The notes beneath the pieces were generated by a model that ran no database searches, was not told the origin of the DNA, and saw only the letters and a program-made list of their open reading frames with translations. The translations under genes were made by a program, and so were the position numbers. Source: Curvularia clavata (Eukaryota). Taken from it: a DNA stretch of 64,000 nt. The stretch covers positions 3,968,001 to 4,032,000 of the forward strand of contig CP089274.1 of NCBI GenBank assembly GCA_023920165.1. The letters are read 5' to 3'. This document shows, piece by piece, positions 10,413 to 60,196 of the stretch (its first letter is position 1; the number at the start of each line of letters is the position of its first letter).

Positions 10413-12021
10413 ATGCGTGAAATCGTACGCATGCTCCCAACGTCAGATCTTCGCTGGATGCGCATCCTTATCCCGTGTTTTGCAGCAGGATCGATACGTT
10501 CAGAACAATAGCTAACGACGGCTTTTCAAACCATAGATTCACCTCCAGACAGGCCAATGCGTACGCTTGACCCCAACTCCCTCATTGAGACGGTAGCTTA
10601 CAGTTACTAGGGTAACCAAATTGGTGCTGCCTTCTGGCAAACCATCTCTGGCGAGCACGGCCTCGATAGCTCCGGTGTTTACAATGGCACCTCGGACCTC
10701 CAGCTTGAGCGCATGAACGTCTACTTCAACGAGGTACTGTATTTGGCCTTCACTGCATAAGATGAATGCTAATCAATGGCAGGCCTCCGGCAGTAAGTTC
10801 GTTCCCCGTGCCGTCCTCATCGACTTGGAGCCTGGTACCATAGACGCTGTCCGTGCCGGACAGCTCGGACAGCTCTTTCGCCCCGACAACTTCGTTTTCG
10901 GTCAATCTGGTGCTGGCAATAACTGGGCAAAGGGTCACTACACTGAGGGTGCCGAGTTGGTCGACCAGGTCCTTGATATCGTCCGCCGCGAGGCTGAGGG
11001 CTGCGACTGCATCCAGGGTTTCCAGATCACCCATTCCCTTGGTGGCGGTACTGGTGCTGGTATGGGTACGCTTCTGATCTCCAAGATCCGCGAGGAGTTC
11101 CCGGACCGTATGATGGCTACCTTCTCGGTTGTGCCTTCCCCTAAGGTCTCAGATACCGTTGTAGAGCCCTACAACGCCACACTCTCCATCCACCAGCTTG
11201 TTGAGAACTCCGACGAGACCTTCTGCATTGACAACGAGGTGTGTGGCAAGTCGACCTAGTGCTTTTGGAAGGAAGAAGCTCACTAGTTACAGGCCTTGTA
11301 CGACATCTGCACGAGGACTCTCAAGCTGAACAGTCCATCCTATGGTGACCTGAACCACCTTGTCTCCGCTGTTATGTCTGGTATCACCACCTGCTTGCGT
11401 TTCCCTGGCCAGCTCAACTCTGATCTGAGGAAACTGGCTGTTAACATGGTTCCCTTCCCTCGTCTCCACTTCTTCATGGTCGGTTTCGCCCCTTTGACCA
11501 GCCGTAGCGCCAATTCCTTCCGTGCCGTCACAGTCCCCGAGCTCACGCAGCAGATGTTCGACCCCAAGAACATGATGACTGCCTCAGACTTCCGTAACGG
11601 CCGTTACCTGACCTGCTCTGCTTACTTCCGCGGTAAAATCTCCATGAAGGAGATTGAGGACCAGATGCGCAATATCCAAAATAAGAACTCCATGTACTTC
11701 GTTGAGTGGATCCCCAACAACGTCCAGACCGCTCTCTGCTCGGTCCCGCCGCAAGGCCTTAAGATGTCCGCTACCTTTGTCGGGAACTCCACCTCCATCC
11801 AAGAACTCTTCAAGCGTGTCGGTGATCAGTTCACTGCCATGTTCAGGCGCAAGGCTTTCTTGCATTGGTATACTGGCGAGGGTATGGATGAAATGGAATT
11901 CACTGAGGCTGAATCCAACATGAACGACTTAGTCTCCGAGTATCAGCAGTACCAGGAGGCTTCTATCTCTGATGCCGAGGACGAGTACAATGAGGAGGCC
12001 CCTCTTGAGGCTGAGGAGTAG
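10413..12021 (+). CDS. tub2: Beta-tubulin (divergent copy), 5 exons
   Basis: Exons 10413-10424, 10537-10560, 10611-10733, 10783-11238, 11293-12021. MREI start, GGGTGAG signature, acidic tail. No stops. Confidence 0.97.
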
Positions 12022-13026: not shown

Positions 13027-14695
13027 ACGTACCTCACGGGTTCGCGGTCCACACGGGTTCGCGGTCCACTTTTGCCAAGACCCCACCAAAACCACCACAT
13101 TATGGCCTAATACAGCCCAACTTTAGCCAGTTTAATGCAAAAAAATATAAAATACTATTCAGAGCCTACTTCTGCTTCATTCTTACACGTTCGCGCGTTA
13201 TGCCTAGTCCTATTGCACCGTCCACACCGCCGTTGAGACGGTTCACCCACTTTAGCGCGCTTCTGCTTCTTTAACTTCTTCCTATCACTACGCACCCCAA
13301 AGTCCTGGAGAGCAGTCAAGCGCGCCCTATCTTCAACTATTAAGGTCCTCTCTGCCTGAATCTGCTTTCTTTTATGCGATTTTCGTCGCGTGGCGGCTGC
13401 GTTAGCTGCTTTAAGCTTACTAATCCGTTTTTGTGCCAATACTAGCTTATGCGCGATAATAGCTGCCCTCTTTAAGACCTTCTTAAAAGCCTCCACTATA
13501 GACGTTAGTGAGCTGTCTAGGTGCCTCTGAATCCTCTGCTTTATTAGCGTCGATTGCGACCCTATTTCAAGGGTATTCCTCAGGGTTTGCGACAGCTAGG
13601 GCTAGATATCAATAGGTAGGGGTGATAGAGTGCGCAATTGGACATTAAGGGCGGATATAACCCGTTCTAGATTAAATAGGACTAATCCAGCGCCTTAAAA
13701 CCCTCCTTAGACATTACTAGCTATAAATAATGCGTCAAAAGCCCGCCTAAAGCAAGGTAGGAACTCTTGTTTAGTAATGTGGTTGATCTGGGTGCGCATG
13801 AGCGATTCGACTTGGCGCCCATAGGCCTGCTTTAAAGGGGCAAAACAGCCTATATCAAGCGGCTATAAGAGGTGAGACGAGTGTAGAGGCATATAAAGAG
13901 TAACAATTTTGTTATCTTTGCAGTATTTTTGGAAATCTAGCGAGTTATAGCTCTCATGGCCGTCAATAAAGAGTAGATGGTGGGTACCTACTACCTTCTT
14001 CTTTGTATGCTCATCAAAGTGCTTTAGCCACGCAAGACCAAGCTCATTGGTCGTCCAGCCGTTCTCAGAGACTCCAATAACCCAGTTCTAGGGTATATCT
14101 CTATCTTTATACCAGCTTGAGAGGTAGTGGCGCGCCTTAAGTATGATAAAGGGCGGAATCGTCCACCTGGTCGCATTAATGCCCTAGATAACCGTCGCCC
14201 ACTCTCTATTGCCAGGCTAGATAGTCTTTAGCCGTCCACGTCTCTCTAAAGCTGTAACAACTACTCTAGGGGTAATCTAGCCTATTATAAAGCCTATCTT
14301 GTTAAAGTTGTATATATCGTCATCTTAGATACTATACTTGGCTTTCATATTGGCTACTAGGCTAAACTAGTCTTGAATAGCCTTAGGATCCTCACAGAGT
14401 GCTCTCTTGTAGTTATACTTGCGATTAAACTTTACTTTAAGCTTAGGGCGGCGCTTAACGAACGTACTAGGCTAGTTTTGGCCAACCTGGCCCAAATTGC
14501 GCTTAGCGCGCAAGAAATTGGCCATATTAGCTACATCTGCGAGCCTAGGGGGAAATCCACGTGAACTAAGATCAAGAATATGCTCAACAACCACCTCCTC
14601 CTCAAGCTTAGTTAGATTTATTGTTTTAGACCTGCGATCTGCTTGTGAATCCCATCTATTGCGTCTTTAACGTAGTGTTGTTCGAGAGATATTAT
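13027..14695 (-). mobile_element. pogo/Fot1 (Tc1/mariner) DNA transposon, RIP-degraded, 5' end missing
   Basis: TA then terminal ACGTACCTCACGGGTTCGCGGTCCACACGGGTTCGCGGTCCAC with an internal direct repeat. Transposase relics include CENP-B HTH (LEEEVVVEHILDL..RGFPP), DDE region (FIDGHES, PLDIGCFAPLK) and C-terminal RRCGRC...HNARTC. Many TAG/TAA. Confidence 0.92.
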
Positions 14696-14904
14696 TGTCA
14701 GGACCTGGTCCAAATTGGGACATGTTGGTCCAATTCCCTCCTTCTTCACGCTAGTTAGTCAGCTAGGGCTTACCTAAGGCTATAAAGCCTCCACGATCGC
14801 TAGAGGTGCTCGATAGCGATTCGTCTCGTGAATACATGGCTGTTAAAGCATAGTTCTCTCTCATCTATCTCGTGCTGTACCTTCACGCCACTAACAGTCT
14901 AACA
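14696..14904 (+). repeat. 5' LTR (209 bp)
   Basis: TGTCAG...CTAACA, TATAAA at 14781, identical by eye to 21819-22027. Confidence 0.97.
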
Positions 14905-14936
14905 TTCGAATCGCTCTCCTCAAGTACACCTACGAG

Positions 14937-16169
14937 ATGTCAGAGAGAGCCATGCCGAACCCAGGTAGTCGCCAAACTCGGAGCCGCCCAAGGTCAACTC
15001 GAAACACGGTAGTAGGGGACTCACAGCCCACTCTAACTAGAGACTCAACCCAGCCATCTTCAAGTGAACTATCCGAGCCTGCCGTCACGGAGGCAGATCA
15101 GGCCGAACTGGCACAGAGAAGCCCAATTCAGGGCAGCCCAGCTCGACTTGAACCACCTCAGACCACCATTGCTCAACAGCTAGACGAACTGCGCGCTTGG
15201 AGGCAACGAGCGCTTGACGAGCAAGAACTGAAACGTCTCCAGGAAATCAAGCGTCGGTTCGACCAAGGTGACACGACAGCACTGACAGAGGACCTATATG
15301 AACCACACCGTGCGGTGGGGATACAACTAGAACCAAACGTGGGAGCTCCACGACCAGAAAAACCAACACAGTTCACAAGCCGCGATCGTGCCGAGTACAA
15401 TCGCTGGGAACGCGAATGTGAGGCAACGTTTAGGGGAAGCCCTAAAACGTTCCAAACAGAGGCAGTCAAGATCGATTTTGGGCTTAGGTATATCACTGAC
15501 CCCCTACGCTCCACATGGGACGCCTATTATCACGACTACTGTAGAAAAGACACGAATTGGACACCCACGTGGCTAGACCTGAAGACTGTAATGGTGGATT
15601 CACTGGGACCACCAGAACAGCGGAAGCTTGAAGCCCACCGAGCTCTCAAACACATCAGACAGGACTGGTCTCAGGACCCAAACGACCTGTTGGCCAAATT
15701 GGACACACTTTGGTCCGAATTGGGCAATGCCTACTCGGAAGAGCAGAGAGTGAGGGACTTTATGGGCGCTTTGACAATGACAATACAGAAAGAGTTGCTT
15801 TTACTCGAACCAGGTCAAAGAAGCACAATCTCAGACCTAAACGCGCGAGCGCGACTTATCTGGGACAGAACGAAAAGAGAGAAGCCTAGCAACGCTAGAA
15901 CAACGCAGAACAAGCAAGCCAGGAGCGGCACACCACCAAAGAACACAAGAGGGTACGAAAAAACCCTGAAAAAACAAAGACGGAACCCTGCGGATACAAA
16001 AGGTTCATACGCGGCAAACAAGGTTCGAGGACGCGACGCAGAGGGCAAAATTGTCTGTTACAACTGCGGGGAACCCGGACACATCAGCAGGAACTGTAGT
16101 AAGCACAAACAAAGCCAAGCGGCACCTGAGGAACCCAAACTGGAAAAAGGCAAGGGGCGGAGAACCTAG
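14937..16169 (+). CDS. gag: Gag
   Basis: 410 aa with CYNCGEPGHISRNC zinc knuckle. Confidence 0.95.
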   Translation: MSERAMPNPGSRQTRSRPRSTRNTVVGDSQPTLTRDSTQPSSSELSEPAVTEADQAELAQRSPIQGSPARLEPPQTTIAQQLDELRAWRQRALDEQELKRLQEIKRRFDQGDTTALTEDLYEPHRAVGIQLEPNVGAPRPEKPTQFTSRDRAEYNRWERECEATFRGSPKTFQTEAVKIDFGLRYITDPLRSTWDAYYHDYCRKDTNWTPTWLDLKTVMVDSLGPPEQRKLEAHRALKHIRQDWSQDPNDLLAKLDTLWSELGNAYSEEQRVRDFMGALTMTIQKELLLLEPGQRSTISDLNARARLIWDRTKREKPSNARTTQNKQARSGTPPKNTRGYEKTLKKQRRNPADTKGSYAANKVRGRDAEGKIVCYNCGEPGHISRNCSKHKQSQAAPEEPKLEKGKGRRT

Positions 16170-19100
16170 TAGCCCTACTCTCCGCCCATATTGCAAGGCT
16201 AGAGCTAGAAGAGGACTTGAAGACACTTCGCGAAGCAATGTTCAGCAAACCTAGCCCACTATTGACCATAACGGTGCAAATTGGCCAAGATCCACTCGAA
16301 GCGCTGATAGATGGAGGGTCTCAACTAAATCTACTCTCAATCCACCAAGCTAAGGATCACGATTTAACAATAACTCCTATACCGAATTTAGTGGCAGAAG
16401 CCTTAAGCGGCGTGGAGTTTGAGATTTATGGCACTACAGAGGTGACCATGAAAGTCACAGACACAAGAGGGAGGACTAAAGTCCAGAATATACCTTTTGT
16501 GGTGACAGAAATGAAGCATTACCCAGTATGCTTAGGTATGCCCTGGGTCGACTTCTACAAGCCCAAAATAAGCCTCCGGTCGCGTCGAGTGCTATTTAGG
16601 GGCGTGAAATATGTAGATAGGGCTTCATATGAGAAAATCGCGACAGAAAGCGCCGAAGAGTTTGAGAAAACACTCCGAACGCCCACGACGGACGTTTACG
16701 CGCTCAAAGTGTCCACTGTGATGGGTTGGGACCCAAGCGACGAGGAAGAGGACTGGGAGGGGTTGGAGAAGCCCAAGAACGCCCAGGTTGGCCCTGATCA
16801 AGCCAAGTTGCCTCAGTTGCCACCACAGTACGAGGACTTTGCGGATTTGGCCTCGGAAGAGGATGCCAAGTGCCTTGCTGAGCATGGCCCGCACGATTTG
16901 GTGATATCCTTGAAAGAAGGCACCACGCCACCACATCAGCCGCTATATGGGCTCTCGAAGAGCGAGTTAGCGCTACTCCGGGATTACTTGCGTGAGTATC
17001 TCGCGAGAGGGTGGATTAGACATTCGAAGTCGCCAGCAGGCGCACCAATACTCTTCGCGAAGAAGAAAGACGGCACGATGAGGTTATGTGTGGACTATAG
17101 AGGTCTAAACAACATAACGCTCAAAAACCGTCACCCTTTACCCTTGATTACGGAGTCCTTGGATAGATTGGCTGAGGCAAAATTCTATACCAAGCTAGAC
17201 GTCCGAGAAGCATATCATAGGGTGAGGATTAAGGAGGGAGACGAGTGGAAGACAGCCTTCCGCACCAGATACGGCCATTTCGAGTATACTGTGATGCCTT
17301 TTGGCCTTACAAACGCTCCTGCACAATTTCAGGCGTACATACACCATATCCTTGCAGGATTGGTAGATGTGAGTTGTATTGTGTATTTGGACGATATCCT
17401 GGTGTTCTCCAACACAGAAGAGGAGCACGAGAGACACGTGCGCGAAGTCTTAAACAGATTGCGCGAAGCCAAGCTGTATTTGAAGACTTCGAAGTGTGAA
17501 TGGCACACCCAACACACTGAGTTCCTTGGCTACACAGTTAGCCCCGAGGGTATAAGTATCGACCCAGATCGGGCCAAAACGGCCCAAGAATGGCCAGAAC
17601 CGCGTACAGTGCGCGATGTCCGCGTGTTTCTAGGCTTCATGAACTACTATCGTCGATTCATTGCTAACTTCTCCAGAATCGCACTGCCTTTAACTGAGTT
17701 ACTGAAAAAGGAGCCGAACGCCGCCAAAGGGGGCAAAGCTCAGCGAAAAGAGGAAAGCGTACTGCTAATTCTAGACGAAAACGCCAAGAGCGCGTTTAAG
17801 ACGCTAAAAAACTCCTTTACGGCAGTACCTATCCTAACCCACTTTAATCCAGACAATCAGACTAGAGTACAGGTCGATGCGTCGGGAGGAGCGATTGCTG
17901 GCATCCTAAGCCAGTACGTGCCCAAAGAGGCTTGCTGGAGACCCGTAGACTTCTACTCGCGCAAATTAATCGCCGCGGAGTACAACTATGACACGCATGA
18001 CCAAGAGCTACTAGCTATCGTCGCTAGTCTCCAACACTGGCGAAGATATCTTGATGGGATACACTTTGATCTAATTACTGACCATCGAAACCTGAAGTGG
18101 TTCATGGAAACCAAAACACTGAATCACCGCCAGGTACGGTCTTACTTAGCCCTATCAGGTTTTGATTTCACAATTGTACACCAACCTGGGAAAACAAACC
18201 CCGCCGACGGCCCATCGCGCAGACCCGACTACATAAAAGCCGCCCAAGAGCCAAAGCAGAAGAATAATAGCGCATATGTGCCATCGCTACGCCATCTGCT
18301 CAAATTCAATGCCGAAGGGACTGCTATAGCTGCAGCTGCCACCACACGATCACAAGGACGGCAGAATACAGCAGCGAAGCAACATGAAGACCAGAGGCAT
18401 GCAGCATTGGCTCAAGAGGCCGACTCAGAGACGGACGAATACACTTCGGACTCATGTAGCTCAGAAGAAGACGACGTGGCCAAACCAAGTCCACAAAGGC
18501 TCAAACAGGGCCACTCTGGCCCAACCGTGCCCAAGACGGCACAGGAAAAAGCAGCAGCATTAAAACAAGGTCACGACGACCCGCTTTCTGGACATTTTGG
18601 CGCAAGACGCACATTAGAGAAACTAACGCGCCACTACAAGTGGGCTGGCATGAGGAAAGACGTGGAAGACTACTGCAAATCATGCCTTATCTGTCAAAAA
18701 TCTACCCCGAAACGGCACCTGCCATACGGGCCCCTTGCACCATTACCACCACCCAATAGAGCCTGGGAGGAAGTAACAATGGACTTTATAACTGAATTGC
18801 CACCAAGCAAACTGCAAGGCGTAGTATACGACGCAATCCTCGTGATAGTCGACAGACTGACCAAAATGGCCCATTACGTGCCAGCACGGTCCAATTGGGA
18901 CGGAGTAGACCTAGCTCAGGCATGGTTGCGCGAAGTAATCCGTCTCCATGGCGTACCACGCCGAATCATATCAGATAGAGGCCCTTTAATGAACTCCACC
19001 CATTGGAAGACCTTTCTTCACTACCTTAACTCGAAACGTGTACTTACTTCGGCATACCACCCACAAACAGATGGCCGGACTGAACGCCAAAATCAGACTC

Positions 19101-19870
19101 TAGAACAGTACCTCCGCTGCTACTGTTCCCTAGAGCAGGACGACTGGGCATTATGGATCTCAGTAGGGGAATACGCGTACAATGACAGTGTACATTCGAC
19201 TACCAAGGTCACCCCCTTCCAAGCATGCAACGGCATACACCCAAGAGGCGCAGAATGGCCCAAAGACGCCCAAACTGGGGGCGAAAACCCCCTAGCGGCA
19301 AGTACTGCCTCAAGAATAATCGAAATACAACAAGAGTGCAAGAACAATATTCTAAAAGCGCAAGAGTACCAAAAACGGCACGCAGATAAGAAAAGACAAC
19401 CCATTCCTTTTAAGGTAGGGGATAAAGTACTGCTATCTAATAAGCATATTAAATCCCTGCGACCAAAGAAGAAGATCGACTGGAAATACGTTGGCCCAGG
19501 CACAATAACTGAGCAAATCGGCCCATCAGCATTTAAAGTAGATATGCCTGGCCTAAAAAACGTACACCCAGTGTTCCATGCATCCTTACTAGAGCAGTAT
19601 CACCCCCCAGGTGATATACCACATCCTGAAGTCCCAACACAACACGAACTAGGCGAGACAGGCGACGATGTCTACCTCGTGGACAAAATAGTGGGACATA
19701 GGAAGAACAAGGACGATCAGTGGGAATACTTAGTGAAATGGACTGGATACCCCGACTCTGAAAACACATGGGAGCCAGCCGCCAATGTTACCCAGAAAAC
19801 GCTTCAAGAGTTCTGGAACAAATCAAATCAGGTCCCTCGACGCAGACGCGGGCCAAAACGGGCCAAATAG
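16130..19870 (+). CDS. pol: Pol (protease-RT-RNase H-integrase-chromodomain), probably via -1 frameshift
   Basis: LIDGGS protease, YLDD RT, DAS RNase H, H..GHFG/C..C integrase and YLVKWTGY...NTWEP chromodomain. The pol frame (-1 to gag) is open from 16130 and overlaps the gag end at GGAAAAA (16142-16148). Confidence 0.96.
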   Translation, partial: GTQTGKRQGAENLVALLSAHIARLELEEDLKTLREAMFSKPSPLLTITVQIGQDPLEALIDGGSQLNLLSIHQAKDHDLTITPIPNLVAEALSGVEFEIYGTTEVTMKVTDTRGRTKVQNIPFVVTEMKHYPVCLGMPWVDFYKPKISLRSRRVLFRGVKYVDRASYEKIATESAEEFEKTLRTPTTDVYALKVSTVMGWDPSDEEEDWEGLEKPKNAQVGPDQAKLPQLPPQYEDFADLASEEDAKCLAEHGPHDLVISLKEGTTPPHQPLYGLSKSELALLRDYLREYLARGWIRHSKSPAGAPILFAKKKDGTMRLCVDYRGLNNITLKNRHPLPLITESLDRLAEAKFYTKLDVREAYHRVRIKEGDEWKTAFRTRYGHFEYTVMPFGLTNAPAQFQAYIHHILAGLVDVSCIVYLDDILVFSNTEEEHERHVREVLNRLREAKLYLKTSKCEWHTQHTEFLGYTVSPEGISIDPDRAKTAQEWPEPRTVRDVRVFLGFMNYYRRFIANFSRIALPLTELLKKEPNAAKGGKAQRKEESVLLILDENAKSAFKTLKNSFTAVPILTHFNPDNQTRVQVDASGGAIAGILSQYVPKEACWRPVDFYSRKLIAAEYNYDTHDQELLAIVASLQHWRRYLDGIHFDLITDHRNLKWFMETKTLNHRQVRSYLALSGFDFTIVHQPGKTNPADGPSRRPDYIKAAQEPKQKNNSAYVPSLRHLLKFNAEGTAIAAAATTRSQGRQNTAAKQHEDQRHAALAQEADSETDEYTSDSCSSEEDDVAKPSPQRLKQGHSGPTVPKTAQEKAAALKQGHDDPLSGHFGARRTLEKLTRHYKWAGMRKDVEDYCKSCLICQKSTPKRHLPYGPLAPLPPPNRAWEEVTMDFITELPPSKLQGVVYDAILVIVDRLTKMAHYVPARSNWDGVDLAQAWLREVIRLHGVPRRIISDRGPLMNSTHWKTFLHYLNSKRVLTSAYHPQTDGRTERQNQTLEQYLRCYCSLEQDDWALWISVGEYAYNDSVHSTTKVTPFQACNGIHPRGAEWPKDAQTGGENPLAASTASRIIEIQQECKNNILKAQEYQKRHADKKRQPIPFKVGDKVLLSNKHIKSLRPKKKIDWKYVGPGTITEQIGPSAFKVDMPGLKNVHPVFHASLLEQYHPPGDIPHPEVPTQHELGETGDDVYLVDKIVGHRKNKDDQWEYLVKWTGYPDSENTWEPAANVTQKTLQEFWNKSNQVPRRRRGPKRAK

Positions 19871-20159
19871 GGCCAATAGGAGCCAAATTAGCACATGTAC
19901 CTTCACCTACTTTTTTTCCCCAAAGGGTTTTATAGGTGTTTAACGGCATAAGCTGATTAGGGCAACCTGGCCCAAATTGGTCCATGTTGAACTGACATTG
20001 CACAACAAAAACCAAGGAATGGAAAAGTAAAGAAAAGAGAATTTCAATTATCACCTCCATCCTAATGCCCTGGGTATCTCATATGAAAGGGAAGAAAACC
20101 ACCATAGCCCATACTGACCCAATTTGGGCCAAAACGGACAAAACTAGACCCAACCACCC

Positions 20160-21225
20160 TTAATCACCGGCAACTGCGGCCTCGTACTCCTTGTTAAGCC
20201 TTGCCTTGGCTTTTTCCAAGTTCTTGATGTCATTGGTGATCTTCCTCTTGGCTTGACCCTTGGCCCCCTCCTTCTCGGACATTTTTTGCAAAATCTCTTC
20301 ATCAATGTCATTGATGCGCTTCTGAAGCTCATCAGTGACATCCTCGGCAACCTTGACCTAAAGAACCAAGTTAGTCCAAATTGGGGCAATTTGGCGTAAA
20401 TAGGGGGGAAAAGGATCACAAACCTCCTTCTTGCGCCCACCAGAGCCATACTTGGACTTCTTGACCCTTGCCTCGACCAAAGTTTCCACCTCGATCTCAT
20501 GAGCCTTCCTCTTGACCTCTTCATCCTTCTTGGAGCGGCCAAGGGCAGAAGTCTTCACACCAGAGCGGGGATCATCTTCCTCCTCGATGGCACCAGAGGA
20601 AAGAGACAGATGAGTAGCATGAGGCTCAAACCTACACAAATTAGTCCAATTTGGGCCAGATTTAGGAAAATTGGATCACTTACTTCTTGAGTGACTCAAC
20701 AATAGGCTTGCTGAACATACTAAGCCTAGTAACGGCCACCTCGTACATTTCCCTGCGCTCAGCACGAACTTCAGCCTCATTGGCACCCTCGGGGATATCT
20801 TTGTCAATGGCATGGAAGGCATCCTCAACCTTCCCAATGAGCTGGCCAAGTCTCACCCAGTCGGGGGAGAACTTGTCGGGAGGAGGCACCTAACCACTCA
20901 TTTAGCTCCAAATTGGACCAAATCAGAGCAAAACAGGGCAACTTACCGCAAAACAGACACGGTTGATGTAAGAGCAGCGAAGACACTTCATCACCTGCCT
21001 AGGCATACCGCCAGACTCCGGTTCAACCTTGTAGCCAGACCAAGCCTCAGCTACCTCAGGATTGTCGATGTCCAACATAACGCAACCCGCTCTGCCAAAA
21101 GTAACGGGCTCATTATCCCTGAAGGCGTTCAGACAGCACACACAAGCGTAGTAAGACCTCTGGCCCTTGCGTACGAACAGGTTTGACACCGTACTGCGGT
21201 TGACGGATCCAAGTGCGTTCGTCAT
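20160..21225 (-). CDS. Antisense, 3-intron accessory gene of the Gypsy element (~296 aa; Cys-rich N-terminus, charged coiled-coil C-terminus)
   Basis: Exons 21225-20947, 20889-20684, 20631-20424, 20357-20160. All introns are GT-AG with CTAA(C/T/A) branch-like sites, and the phases join into one uninterrupted ORF ending TAA. Confidence 0.85.
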
Positions 21226-21818
21226 GGTTCAAGTGGGTCTTGAAGGCCCCAATTTGGGGGTGTTTGGGACGAATCGGTCGAATCTGTCGCGAAATGGATC
21301 GTATGGGAGGAAACAGCCTAAAAAGAAAAGTCAGCAGAAAACTCCAAGTCCAGGGGAAGAACCTCAGAAAAAGGCAACAAAACCAAGGTCGACTGCAAAC
21401 TGGCCCAAATTGGGCCAAACTGTTGCAAACAGACCGTGGGTGGAAGGTGTCGGGCCCAAACTGAGAAGACCCACAAAATGGGAGTCTACTTACCAAAGTG
21501 GGGTTGGTGGACTGTGGGGTGTACTGGGCTTAGTCAAAAACTGGCTATTGTATCCCTGGATCCGCACTAAATTAGCGCGTCACGTGACTCTTGGCGCTGC
21601 CCAGGAGTACCCTGATGGGCCGGGTTGGCCCAAAGTGGGGCAGTCGGCTAGGCAGCAGCGCAAAACTCCGCTATTATGACGTCATAGCCCTGGGGCGGTG
21701 AGCAAGTAAAATACACCCTCCAACCCACACGGCGGCATCACCCAGTAATCGCTCAAACTGGGCGGCAAGCATGATAAGTTGCGCAGCTGGGACAGCTGCA
21801 CCCTAAGAAGGGAGGTAT

Positions 21819-22027
21819 TGTCAGGACCTGGTCCAAATTGGGACATGTTGGTCCAATTCCCTCCTTCTTCACGCTAGTTAGTCAGCTAGGGCTTACCTAA
21901 GGCTATAAAGCCTCCACGATCGCTAGAGGTGCTCGATAGCGATTCGTCTCGTGAATACATGGCTGTTAAAGCATAGTTCTCTCTCATCTATCTCGTGCTG
22001 TACCTTCACGCCACTAACAGTCTAACA
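21819..22027 (+). repeat. 3' LTR (209 bp)
   Basis: Identical to the 5' LTR, preceded by a PPT. Confidence 0.97.
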
Positions 22028-22987
22028 GCTATAAATAGTAAAGAAAAAAAGAAATAAACTTATAGGATTGCACTTTTTCTTCTACTAAATGTAATAAAGA
22101 CACTTCTTAGAGAAATCAGACGGGTAGGCATAAGCAATATCGAACTAACGGCGCGCTAAGGTGCGGATAGCTTGCAGATAGATGAAGCGATACGCATCTA
22201 GTAGCGCACTAGACAGACAACGAAGAGGCATAGTAAAAACAAGTGCGTTAAGTTATAATTAACTTATTTTAATTAAAAAGCGTAGAAGAGAAAACTTGGC
22301 GGCAATACTATATTATTATTAATATACATACTAGGAGAGCAAATAGTCTTAGCACATGTAATCTAGATAGCCGTTAGACCCTAACTACAAACAAATCACC
22401 AGCGACTTAGAGCTCCGATCAAAGCGTCCAGGCCTGTCTAGCAGATGAAAGCAAATGGCCTAGCGGCCAGGCAGCAAGGTAGCAGCGCCACGTAAGTACC
22501 GGAATAGTTACTAAAGCTCAGACACAGAGGCTTAAGTAAAGGACATGCACGGCCACGGGAGCCATACCAAAACTAGAGCATCCTATTGTCTAGAGTAGCG
22601 CAGTGTGGGGAAAATCTAGAGGAAATCAGAAATAAAAGACCCTATAGTGCAGGGAAGAAGAATGACAACCAGAACAGATAGCTGTGGGACCAGCTATCTA
22701 CTAGGAGAGGGGGTAATATAACTATATATAGACTAAAATATACCCTAGCTAAGGCAGCTTATTAAGATCTGATTAAGAGCTGGGTTAGACCTGATGAAGA
22801 CCCGCACCTAGATATAAGTACTAGGTACCTTCTATAGATGTTTGGTAGATTTTTAATATCTTTTTATACCAGGCCTATAAGTGTCTACTAAATCTAAGGT
22901 GTTTCTGCTGTCCCACGCACTTCCATATGCATTTGAGTGACACTTCCCACCGGAACCGATTCGACTAGTCTTGCTCGCGCCGTTACA
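22028..22987 (+). mobile_element. 3' end of an older RIP-degraded LTR retrotransposon (PPT ~22703-22713, LTR ~22717-22987)
   Basis: aggagaggggg purine tract, then tataac (RIP-like TGTAAC) ... gttaca end. It interrupts the next pogo element. Confidence 0.6.

Positions 22988-47105: not shown

Positions 47106-47111
<6 letters not shown>

Positions 47112-47148
<37 letters not shown>
47112..47148. repeat. (CT)n microsatellite
   Basis: Read directly. Confidence 0.9.

Positions 47149-47152
<4 letters not shown>

Positions 47153-58727: not shown

Positions 58728-58735
<8 letters not shown>

Positions 58736-58774
<39 letters not shown>
58736..58774. repeat. (TG)n microsatellite
   Basis: Read directly. 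Confidence 0.9.
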
Positions 58775-58776
<2 letters not shown>

Positions 58777-60196
58777 TCCGACAGATGGCAGCATACTGCC
58801 GCTACCACAAGGTCCGACTACACGCTCCACCACCACCACCACCACCAAGCAACCATCACCACCACCACTACCTACCACACCAGCGACCACACTAGAGCGG
58901 CATTGACAACGACACCCCGCAACCAGCCGTGCAAGCGTTGCCGAGCCCTGTCACATCCCTGTCGCCTCTTACGGCGGGTTCCTTGGACCTCCCGCATCGC
59001 ATTTGGCCAGTAATGGCGCCGCCGCCTGCCTCGACCATCTGCTGCTTGACGCCACCATGCCCTCCTGGTCGTCGGCCATTTTTCTACACGGGCCATGGCC
59101 TATGCATGCGAGCATGCACCACCAGCCCACCATGTTCACCAAAGACAGGCATGCACCACGCCGCATCCACCGCCCTGCCATTCGCTCGTTCCCGCCCCGT
59201 CTCGACTGCCTACAGGGCCCACGTCCCGACCTACCGCATCCCTGTGCCCTGGTGTCCTTGGGGTCTGCCATGCCAGCACTAGGCCCTCGACCCTCGTTAG
59301 TCACGCTTCTCGTCGTGTAACAAGCTGCCTCCACGTCCCTCGTAGGATATCTTGTTTCCCTAAGAAGGACCACTGTCCATGCATCCTAGTCCCCTACCCC
59401 CCGGTCAAATGCCCTTTTCCTCATCCTTCGATTTTATCCGGATCGTCGACGTTAGGGCCCGTCAAGCCTTTTGGGTTCGACTGATCTGATCCCCCCCCCT
59501 CCCTGTCTTGCCTGTGCCCCATCGCTGATATAGCCTCCGACGGTTCCTGACGCTCCTCTACACAAAGGGCCCCTACCCCATCCATCGTTGAACCGCGGGA
59601 TCCAAACGCCTTCACTTCTACTAGTATAGAAGCAATCCTTCCCCCCGCTCTTCCACCTTCCCCCCCAATCCCAAATCTACCAAGCCATTCTGGGCTCGGC
59701 GTCTATCCTTCTTCTTACATCCACTACTGCCGCCCTTGGTAGCTTTTCTCTTTCAAGCTCCAAGTTGCTCCCACATTGCGCACCTCTCTTGACACAACAA
59801 AATCTCAAACAAGTCACCTCTGGGGGAGAGACTTGCACAATCACCCACCGTTGAGCTTACACCCTCCGCTGGATCGGCACAACGACATTGCGACAACCCT
59901 TCACCCTCTCGCTGATCACCCGCAACCAACCCCGCACACAAGGACAGGGCCACCGATCGACCACACATCACAAGGACCATCGGATCATTACTCCTTGTAG
60001 ACGATTCACTGTCTACACTGCTCCCAGAGAGTCTAAGCGACACAGTCCACTGCCACTCCACCTAGGAACAAAGGCAGCCAGGTAAGCAGTGGCGTCCTGT
60101 GTCCTGGTCTCTAAGCTAACGAGTACAAAAAGGACGCCCTAGCTCTACAGCTTCACCTACCTGTAAACCCCTACAAGACTATTCCCCAAAGCCCCA

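Follow-up and report, generated by a model that had tools for sequence, protein, structure and literature searches.

What reads a short palindrome that recurs through the non-coding DNA of a single retrotransposon? The question is raised by a 64,000-nucleotide stretch of Curvularia clavata (assembly GCA_023920165.1, contig CP089274.1, positions 3,968,001 to 4,032,000), which we refer to as the window and number from its first letter. At 14693-22027 the window contains an intact element that its long terminal repeats (LTRs) and Pfam domains identify as a Ty3/gypsy chromovirus, and this element carries an additional gene, antisense to gag and pol, between pol and the 3' LTR. An initial annotation noticed the word CCAAWTTGG in the element and proposed that it marks target sites of a regulator encoded by the antisense gene. 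The observation is real and stronger than first stated: the analysis supports the word being specific to the element within the window and present in every non-coding feature of the antisense gene. That the antisense protein reads it is our leading, tentative explanation.

A palindromic word concentrated in one retrotransposon

The ten copies listed initially are all exact matches to CCAAWTTGG (14710, 15694, 19972, 20119, 20376, 20646, 20908, 21249, 21405 and 21833), and the near-matches named alongside them (15715, 19863/19883 and 20386) are among 11 one-mismatch sites within the element. As had also been claimed, nine of the ten exact copies are non-coding: one in each LTR, two in the antisense 3' untranslated region (UTR) or post-pol spacer, one in each of the three introns of the antisense coding sequence (20376, 20646 and 20908), one in the 5'UTR and one in a putative 5'UTR intron, a feature new relative to the earlier reading. 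The statement that no exact copy occurs elsewhere in the window was mistaken, as it overlooked one at 10616, for a total of 11 in 64 kb. This copy falls in a beta-tubulin exon, in the first coding part of the gene, where it corresponds to the codons GNQIG in ..GNQIGAAFW.., and is without extended flanks; since the sole outside copy is coding, there is no non-coding copy in the other 56.7 kb. The beta-tubulin gene itself spans 10414-12021 and has several short introns.

Several comparisons indicate how unusual this concentration is. In 100 dinucleotide-preserving shuffles of the window the word occurred 0.51 times on average and at most twice, and none of the 100 reached 11. One-mismatch copies are split evenly between the element (11) and the remaining 56.7 kb (11), which makes them ~7.7-fold denser inside. 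When k-mers inside the element were set against those in the remaining window without assuming any motif, the most enriched words included CCAAATTGG (10 vs 1), GGCCCAA (10 vs 1) and GGGCCAA (10 vs 3), and AAATTGGG (6 vs 0) was likewise at or near the top.

Counted symmetrically, the nine independent exact sites show CCAAWTTGG to be the centre of a dyad-symmetric site of 17 bp, TGGYCCAAWTTGGRCCA, whose flanking positions are T in 14/18, G in 13/18, G in 12/18 and Y in 16/18. The central base is A in six sites and T in three, so there is no strand preference. The site in turn belongs to a degenerate 10-bp unit, GGSCC-AAWTT, which occurs in short phased arrays, and in rows of ten the A/T blocks (AAWTT) alternate in register with the G/C blocks (GGSCC) over 20-70 bp. 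These arrays make up most of the non-coding DNA in the 3' third of the element, including the promoter, 5'UTR, introns and 3'UTR of the antisense gene as well as the start of U3, and they extend into the last pol codons. Tandem Repeats Finder reported period-10 arrays at 19849-19887, 20919-20941 and 21396-21422. In the non-coding 3' part, self-match reaches 0.375 at a lag of 10, compared with 0.26 in shuffles (z 8.2), and 0.35 at a lag of 20 (z 6.3), with no lag-10 peak in the antisense exons, pol or flank. Among 109 sixty-bp windows with strong lag-10 self-match in the 64 kb, 59 lie within the element and 34 within 19840-21700; the strongest outside the element derive from microsatellites, (CT)n at 47110-47150 and (GT)n at 58730-58780.

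The introns illustrate this composition most simply. Each intron of the coding sequence consists essentially of a 5' splice site, 10-bp-phased repeat units, a branch point and a 3' splice site, and contains one exact copy of the word, sometimes with one or two degenerate copies besides; the consensus of five aligned introns is made of splice signals and CCAAWTTGG repeats. The 9-mer noticed initially is thus the word at the junction in a 10-bp repeat with dyad symmetry. The broader pattern CCW5GG occurs 12 times inside the element and five times outside it within the window.

Motif-like words are not confined to non-coding DNA. We compared gag-pol with synonymous shuffles that keep both protein and codon usage and found seven sites with at most one mismatch where 2.12 were expected (P=0.002), and ten GGNCCAA/TTGGNCC half-sites where 4.15 were expected (P=0.003); the single exact gag-pol copy is not significant alone (P=0.09). 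Phased GSCCAA patches occur in pol at ~16276, 16771-16820, 17561-17600, 18477-18540, 18861-18900 and 19241-19290, and by our own reckoning from the Pfam borders most of them fall in inter-domain linkers. By these counts the word is selected, or generated, beyond non-coding DNA. Pol has no exact copy, and the sites are strongly concentrated in the 3' 2.2 kb. The gag-pol excess taken together with this 3' concentration therefore makes the initial description of the motif as element-wide only partly right.

The antisense gene and a relative of the element

The antisense gene is predicted to have four exons on the minus strand, starting at an ATG at 21225, with three GT..AG introns of 57, 52 and 66 nt and a spliced frame open for 296 codons (Table 1). 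The lengths of exons 2, 3 and 4 differ little (206, 208 and 198 nt), and the motif copies in the introns therefore stand 262-270 bp apart. With exon 1 as the query, 1.84 billion representative proteins yielded seven matches at E<=0.001, of which five are open reading frames (ORFs) of ~92-104 aa that read from exon 1 into the intron and one is a full-length hypothetical protein of 309 aa from Alternaria gaisen (P0002). The spliced product aligns with the latter end to end (24% identity, E 4e-24). The remaining match, P0004, is a tandem-repeat protein of 531 aa to which residues 5-34 align nine times; we judged it spurious and removed it from the alignment. The in-frame exons, the end-to-end alignment and the family search therefore indicate that the gene is conserved and probably real. 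In further searches for kin of the protein, word-index searches found nothing for exon 1 at near lengths or for the exon-1 alignment at longer lengths and returned only itself for P0002; viral contigs gave no match to the antisense protein, and prokaryote genome contigs gave two spurious matches of 16-17 residues. By these searches the protein belongs to a tiny orphan family defined by six invariant cysteines.

The cysteines are spaced C-x2-C-x16-C-x32-C-x2-C-x6-C. The Gal4-type Zn2Cys6 cluster, C-x2-C-x6-C-x5-12-C-x2-C-x6-8-C, resembles this arrangement in its six cysteines, its occurrence in fungal proteins and its second half (C-x2-C-x6-C). We nevertheless reject a Gal4-type identity, as the first half (C-x2-C-x16-C) and the 32-residue linker differ in spacing and all nine family members lack a Zn_clus match even at E up to 5. 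The word that would be the target of the antisense product also lacks CGG triplets. In exon 4, Pfam returned only sub-threshold matches of coiled-coil type.

A metagenome scan yielded a single relative, a contig of 2189 bp (L001), on which the feature-by-feature comparison below rests. Its exon-1 homologue is 46% identical, the first 13 nt of its intron 1 are identical to those of the window element, and an intron 2 is present as well as an exon 3 starting LSSGA(V/I), the positions of introns 1 and 2 being common to both elements. The LTR is homologous, sharing the polypurine tract, the start TGTCAGGA and the end AGTCTAACA, whereas the non-coding DNA is essentially unalignable between the two elements.

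Despite this divergence, L001 has five sites within one mismatch of CCAAWTTGG where 0.65 are expected, a number reached in 0/200 shuffles, together with a lag-10 self-match peak of 0.37. The five comprise one exact and four one-mismatch copies, with the TTGGSCC core of the window element and the variants CTTGGG/TTGGGTT. They fall one apiece in the promoter, 5'UTR intron, 5'UTR, intron 1 and intron 2, with mononucleotide-shuffle probabilities of 0.0695, 0.027, 0.0035, 0.006 and 0.008, respectively. The window element has at least one site in each of these five features, at probabilities of 0.008-0.054, and further sites in intron 3 and the 3'UTR region. The 5'UTR site in L001, CCGATTTGG, lies 24 nt before the ATG, and that of the window element 23 nt before it. 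In both antisense promoters a cAMP response element (CRE)-like TGACGT(C/A)A is followed by TTTGGGCCAA...GGCCC and then by a CA(C/T)GTGA box. The CRE-like sites (TGACGTCA at 21677-21684; TGACGTAA at 1033-1040 of L001) and the E-box-like palindromes (TCACGTGA at 21580-21587; TCATGTGA at 1209-1216 of L001) thus keep the same order around the motif. Given its presence feature by feature in L001 and its excess in gag-pol, the word therefore appears to be under selection, and its recurrence in the non-coding parts of both elements suggests that it is a selected candidate binding site.

Wider comparisons were less informative. Fourteen gypsy elements from IMG/VR (32-40% pol identity, 5.5-6.4 kb) have no exact copy in ~81 kb, but at this length they probably lack room for the antisense gene, and they are too distant to judge whether close gene-less relatives keep the motif. 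Scanning viral contigs for GGCCCAAATTGGGCC gave 26 loci, 24 with one CCAAWTTGG and two with two, none arrayed. The back-translated read-through tails of six family members are compatible with the CCW5GG word in two cases, which is too weak to use.

Candidate readers of the sites

The dyad symmetry of the flanks, the lack of strand preference and the 10-bp phasing argue for a selected cis-element that is recognised in double-stranded form, and the symmetric flanks together with the absence of strand preference fit a reader with two-fold symmetry. Such a reader would be a sequence-specific protein acting as a dimer or multimer along a single side of the helix, and the antisense product, with its N-terminal six-cysteine domain and charged helical tail, is the most economical candidate. 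By binding at many sites across its own gene and the LTR, it could mark or regulate copies of its own family only, and the outcome might be auto-regulation, trans-activation or anti-silencing, following the logic of VANC proteins on VANDAL transposons. We infer both which protein binds and what its binding would achieve. The motif is constantly associated with the non-coding parts of the antisense gene rather than with the LTR, and gene and motif co-occur in both elements compared; these two facts tie the motif to the gene. We give the antisense product a probability of about 0.35 of being a VANC-like, self-encoded reader of the sites, a figure kept low because there is no sign that the protein binds DNA. 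The proposal made initially thus stands as regards its cis half, in that the word is specific to the element, is present in every non-coding feature of the antisense gene, recurs in L001 and is laid out as in VANDAL21, whereas its trans half must contend with a protein that lacks any Pfam, PDB or fold match.

Several results weigh against a self-encoded reader. Pfam returned no family for any exon or for the nine family members. An AlphaFold model of the exon-1 domain (predicted local distance difference test score 74.1, from a nine-row alignment) had no Foldseek match in the PDB at E<=0.001 and, in an exhaustive VIA-align comparison with 48,161 chains, none at Z>=2; a profile search of the PDB gave caspase-7 only (E 0.6-1), and a protein atlas offered nothing useful, its hits being unnamed bacterial clusters (0.92) that fell short of the recognition mark. 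The gene model also lacks support from reads: four sequencing runs behave like DNA, without joints at the intron borders, which is not evidence of absence, and one contig from these DNA-like runs spans intron 3 unspliced. The co-occurrence of gene and motif rests on two elements only, and the arrays may surround the gene simply because the non-coding DNA of the element lies there. The feature borders in L001, drawn from our own gene model, and the 5'UTR intron were set by eye, and the U3 copies are lineage-specific, as the homologous stretch of the L001 LTR is different and has none. Finally, one contig from run X2 joins 19985 to 21919, on a shorter side of 21 letters; this joint leads from the post-pol module to the middle of the LTR and skips 1933 bp, that is, the whole antisense gene. 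Such a variant, if real and if it keeps the motif, would count against the linkage of gene and motif. A prediction of the exon-1 domain as a homodimer with zinc scored 0.00 and speaks neither for nor against binding.

The explanation we would turn to next, though we consider it unlikely, is that the arrays control the antisense gene and LTR through a host protein, such as a transcription factor or chromatin remodeller, or through DNA shape. Phased AnTn tracts are curved, and a 10-bp alternation of AAWTT and GGSCC would be expected to bend the DNA or fix its rotational position, which would account for the strict phasing of A/T and G/C blocks. Arrays of two to five units are, however, short for nucleosome positioning, and shape alone leaves the conservation of the exact CCAAWTTGG letters unexplained. 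A host protein would suit the presence of copies in both promoters, in U3 upstream of the TATA box and, in both elements, between the CRE-like and E-box palindromes. Against it, there is no non-coding copy among ~20 host genes in the other 56.7 kb, although a rare host site would look alike. Particular host factors fare variously. Every exact copy has CCAAT on one strand, as for a CCAAT box (HAP/NF-Y), yet the pentamer is only ~2-fold enriched, largely through the motif itself, and most L001 variants are without it. The MADS/SRF CArG box is CC(A/T)6GG, ten base pairs long, and we reject it, because CCW6GG is not enriched (one inside the element, one outside) whereas CCW5GG stands at 12 and 5. 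CTGGCC, found six times inside the element and 13 times outside, bears a loose likeness to the VosA motif CTGGCCaaGGC (as given in the available part of PMC3876986). There is also a precedent in Magnaporthe, where the host Isw2 remodeller is reported, in the portion of PMC11481914 at hand, to bind palindromic motifs in retrotransposons; the likeness drawn here is one of palindromy.

Less likely again is a signal at the RNA level, in which pairing between copies would serve the dimerisation, packaging or long-range folding of the sense genomic RNA or else control splicing of the antisense pre-mRNA. All distinct copies lie within the 3' 2 kb of the sense genomic RNA, and a minimum free energy fold of 19871-21960 pairs 19972 with 21833, 20646 with 20908, and 20119 with the one-mismatch copy at 21630. 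Any repeated palindrome pairs in this trivial way, however, so the fold is no test. On the plus strand, the seven exact copies from 19972 to 21405 have the central bases A,T,A,T,A,T,A, one of 35 arrangements, so that neighbouring copies are perfect complements; L001 lacks this alternation (T,T,T,A,A). There, CCGATTTGG (5'UTR, 1539-1547) and CCAAATCGG (intron 1, 1891-1899) flank exon 1 and are exact reverse complements, for which we estimate a chance of ~1 in 8. A role in splicing would agree with the position of the motif, which is immediately next to the branch point in two introns (2 and 3) and one base ahead of it in intron 1, where GCTAAA deviates from the usual branch-point consensus at its final base. 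The promoter and U3 copies, on the other hand, are outside any likely antisense transcript, a reader of single-stranded RNA needs no palindrome, and Rfam gave no family match, only a single sub-threshold small nucleolar RNA match in pol.

Least likely, and in our view improbable, is a functionless 10-bp minisatellite spread by slippage, by template switching in reverse transcription or by gene conversion wherever coding constraint is absent: the degenerate tandem structure, the resemblance of introns 2 and 3 to copies of each other, the gain or loss of U3 copies between lineages and the 21405-type array found beside LTR sequence in contigs of two runs, which hints at array exchange, would all be in keeping with it, but slippage would be expected to leave a few long arrays, not single sites spread over seven separate features, and it does not account for per-feature presence in L001 despite unalignable flanking non-coding DNA, for a site conserved 23-24 nt before the ATG or for the coding excess over synonymous shuffles.

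Setting of the element and kinship with known systems

The features of the element are collected in Table 1. Its LTRs are 212-bp direct repeats that are 100% identical, they enclose gag and pol with a C-terminal chromodomain, as in other Ty3/gypsy chromoviruses, and the Pfam domains follow in the order zf-CCHC, RVT_1, RT_RNaseH, Integrase_H2C2, rve, Chromo.

Table 1. Features of the retrotransposon at 14693-22027 and of its antisense gene, in window coordinates
Feature	Position	Strand	Content or basis
5' LTR	14693..14904	+	TG at 14696, CA at 14904; 212-nt repeat of 21816-22027
5' LTR motif content	14710 (exact copy); 14725 (TTGGTCCAA half-unit)	+	~50-75 bp upstream of TATAAA at 14784
gag, CCHC zinc knuckle	14937..16169	+	Pfam zf-CCHC, E 1.7e-8
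gag motif content	15694 (exact copy); 15715 (1-mismatch copy)	+	15694 is the sole exact coding copy in the element
pol: protease, reverse transcriptase, RNase H, integrase, chromodomain	16130..19870	+	Pfam RVT_1, RT_RNaseH, Integrase_H2C2, rve, SH3_Tf2-1, Chromo
Tandem array of four 10-bp units (GGGCCAAAAC and variants) across the pol stop codon	19849..19888	+	Tandem Repeats Finder: period 10, 3.9 copies
Post-pol module like the LTR start (ACCTGGCCCAAATTGGTCCATGTTG)	19957..19990	+	exact motif at 19972; sequence reading
Exact motif in antisense 3'UTR	20119..20127		32 nt past the stop codon
Antisense exon 4 including stop codon, Lys/Glu-rich, predicted helical	20160..20357	-	in-frame spliced model; end-to-end alignment with P0002
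Intron 3, 66 nt, GT..AG	20358..20423	-	exact motif 20376 directly 5' of branch point ACTAAC; 1-mismatch copy 20386
Antisense exon 3	20424..20631	-	LSSGA(I/V) start common to L001 and P0002
Intron 2, 52 nt	20632..20683	-	exact motif 20646 directly 5' of branch point ACTAAT
Antisense exon 2	20684..20889	-	spliced model and alignment
Intron 1, 57 nt	20890..20946	-	exact motif 20908, one base 5' of branch-point-like GCTAAA
Antisense exon 1	20947..21225	-	ATG at 21225; 93-aa domain, six invariant cysteines
Antisense 5'UTR	21226..21317	-	exact motif 21249, 23 nt before the ATG
Putative 5'UTR intron, GTAAGT..TTTTTAG	21318..21493	-	splice sites picked by eye
Perfect 15-nt palindrome GGCCCAAATTGGGCC	21402-21416		within the putative 5'UTR intron
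Antisense promoter region	21494..21815	-	
Promoter order along the gene strand: TGACGTCA, TTTGGGCCAACCCGGCCC, TCACGTGA	21677-21684, 21620-21637, 21580-21587	-	sequence reading
1-mismatch motif inside promoter element TTTGGGCCAACCCGGCCC	21630		promoter element at 21620-21637
Polypurine tract	~21803-21813		
3' LTR	21816..22027	+	exact motif at 21833; direct repeat of the 5' LTR

The surrounding DNA is gene-rich and fungal, with genes for beta-tubulin, a Fungal_trans factor, a Ski2 helicase, a ferric reductase and a homeodomain protein. Two of the four sequencing runs compared show the immediate 5' flank (14400-14663) to be a high-copy repeat. The contig depth of the flank is 408 in run X2 and 33 in run X8, where most of the element stands at ~5-15, and the element therefore sits inside a much more abundant repeat. 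A 64-aa ORF in this flank, which looks pogo/Fot1-like, has no match in Pfam. Within the window, 14477-14499 of the flank matches 19957-19979 of the motif-bearing post-pol module over 23 nt (91% identical, E 0.029), and the flank stretch falls in a minus-strand ORF reading ..NLGQVGQN. We rejected the flank as an older copy of the same family, as the 23-nt match exists only at the DNA level and the sole protein-level match is a 22-residue gag fragment (E 0.29); the 23-nt match could reflect chance, capture or a hint on target choice.

The sequencing runs also indicate how the element is distributed. The stretch 19871-21815 is present, at least partly and near-identical, in 20 runs from 15 studies that carry eight organism labels and six metagenome labels (the labels are coded, and the spread across species is not readable from them), so the element or its close kin is widespread. 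Among differences in diverged copies over 14400-22300, C>T and G>A prevail (107 + 73 of 291 in X2 and 23 + 15 of 41 in X11), an excess that resembles repeat-induced point mutation, and the loose contig ends carry the element in AT-rich form. In X2 and X8 there are also contigs in which the 21405 array (at 21418) is joined to LTR position 21850, three other letters intervening; this joint, like that from 19985 to 21919, may represent variant elements or LTR subtypes.

The closest functional analogy is to the VANC proteins of Arabidopsis. VANC21 binds a 9-bp motif arrayed in the introns, intergenic and terminal non-coding DNA of VANDAL21, and these arrays evolve by tandem-repeat turnover (PMC5735166, in the sections available). 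The element described here shares with that system, as presented in the same sections, a short word enriched in the introns, upstream regions and terminal non-coding DNA of one transposable element, in short tandem arrays that vary between related elements and that occupy the accessory gene's own introns. The motif is thus arrayed in the element's own non-coding DNA in both cases. The accessory proteins, on the other hand, are unrelated: that of the window element belongs to no Pfam family, and we reject homology to VANC. VANDALs are Mutator-like plant DNA transposons, whereas the present host is a fungal LTR retrotransposon; VANC21 motifs are arrayed in one orientation (PMC5735166, available sections), whereas the word here is dyad-symmetric; and the role of VANC in silencing is known from experiment, whereas the likeness drawn here comes from sequence comparison.

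In its position the antisense gene has better-known counterparts. Antisense genes of unknown function lie between pol and the 3' LTR in Boty ('brtn'; Botrytis/Sclerotinia) and in the plant elements Grande, RIRE2 and Retand (PMC7264820 and PMC8365987, in part). All are Ty3/gypsy elements with a conserved extra gene in that interval and orientation, and the same is found here. The parts of those two papers that we could consult report no motif arrays for Boty, Grande, RIRE2 or Retand, and brtn was compared by description only. None of the seven exon-1 matches carries a Botrytis name, though only two clusters carry any name. Proteins that act at multiple short sites in their own element are also familiar elsewhere: En/Spm TnpA and Ac transposase bind subterminal repeat motifs, and foamy-virus Tas is a retroviral DNA-binding trans-activator. 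These are transposases or trans-activators with demonstrated binding, while the antisense product is a candidate reader proposed from sequence. Literature searches, including for the literal word, found in the main texts they covered no family-specific motif array in a fungal retrotransposon, a single fungal antisense retrotransposon gene, brtn of Boty, of unknown function, and VANC of plant DNA transposons as the only transposon-encoded factor shown to recognise motif arrays of its own element.

The antisense gene could thus encode a regulator with a new six-cysteine DNA-binding domain, in an element that has seeded its introns, UTRs, promoter, LTR and even coding DNA with phased palindromic target arrays, through which it would switch on, or shield from silencing, only copies of itself, a retrotransposon counterpart of VANC; we regard this fuller version as somewhat unlikely. 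On it, the target arrays are possibly the reason that the introns of the antisense gene exist at all. The sequence comparisons support the cis side of such a system well, and the trans side would be a small candidate protein. If a host factor or DNA shape is responsible instead, the locus would still be a clean natural case of a selected, 10-bp-phased element in introns and coding DNA. If the link between gene and motif is true, it would mean a new DNA-binding fold, would give retrotransposons a means of distinguishing themselves from other DNA, would explain why LTR elements have antisense genes and might supply a sequence-specific tool for fungal chromatin.

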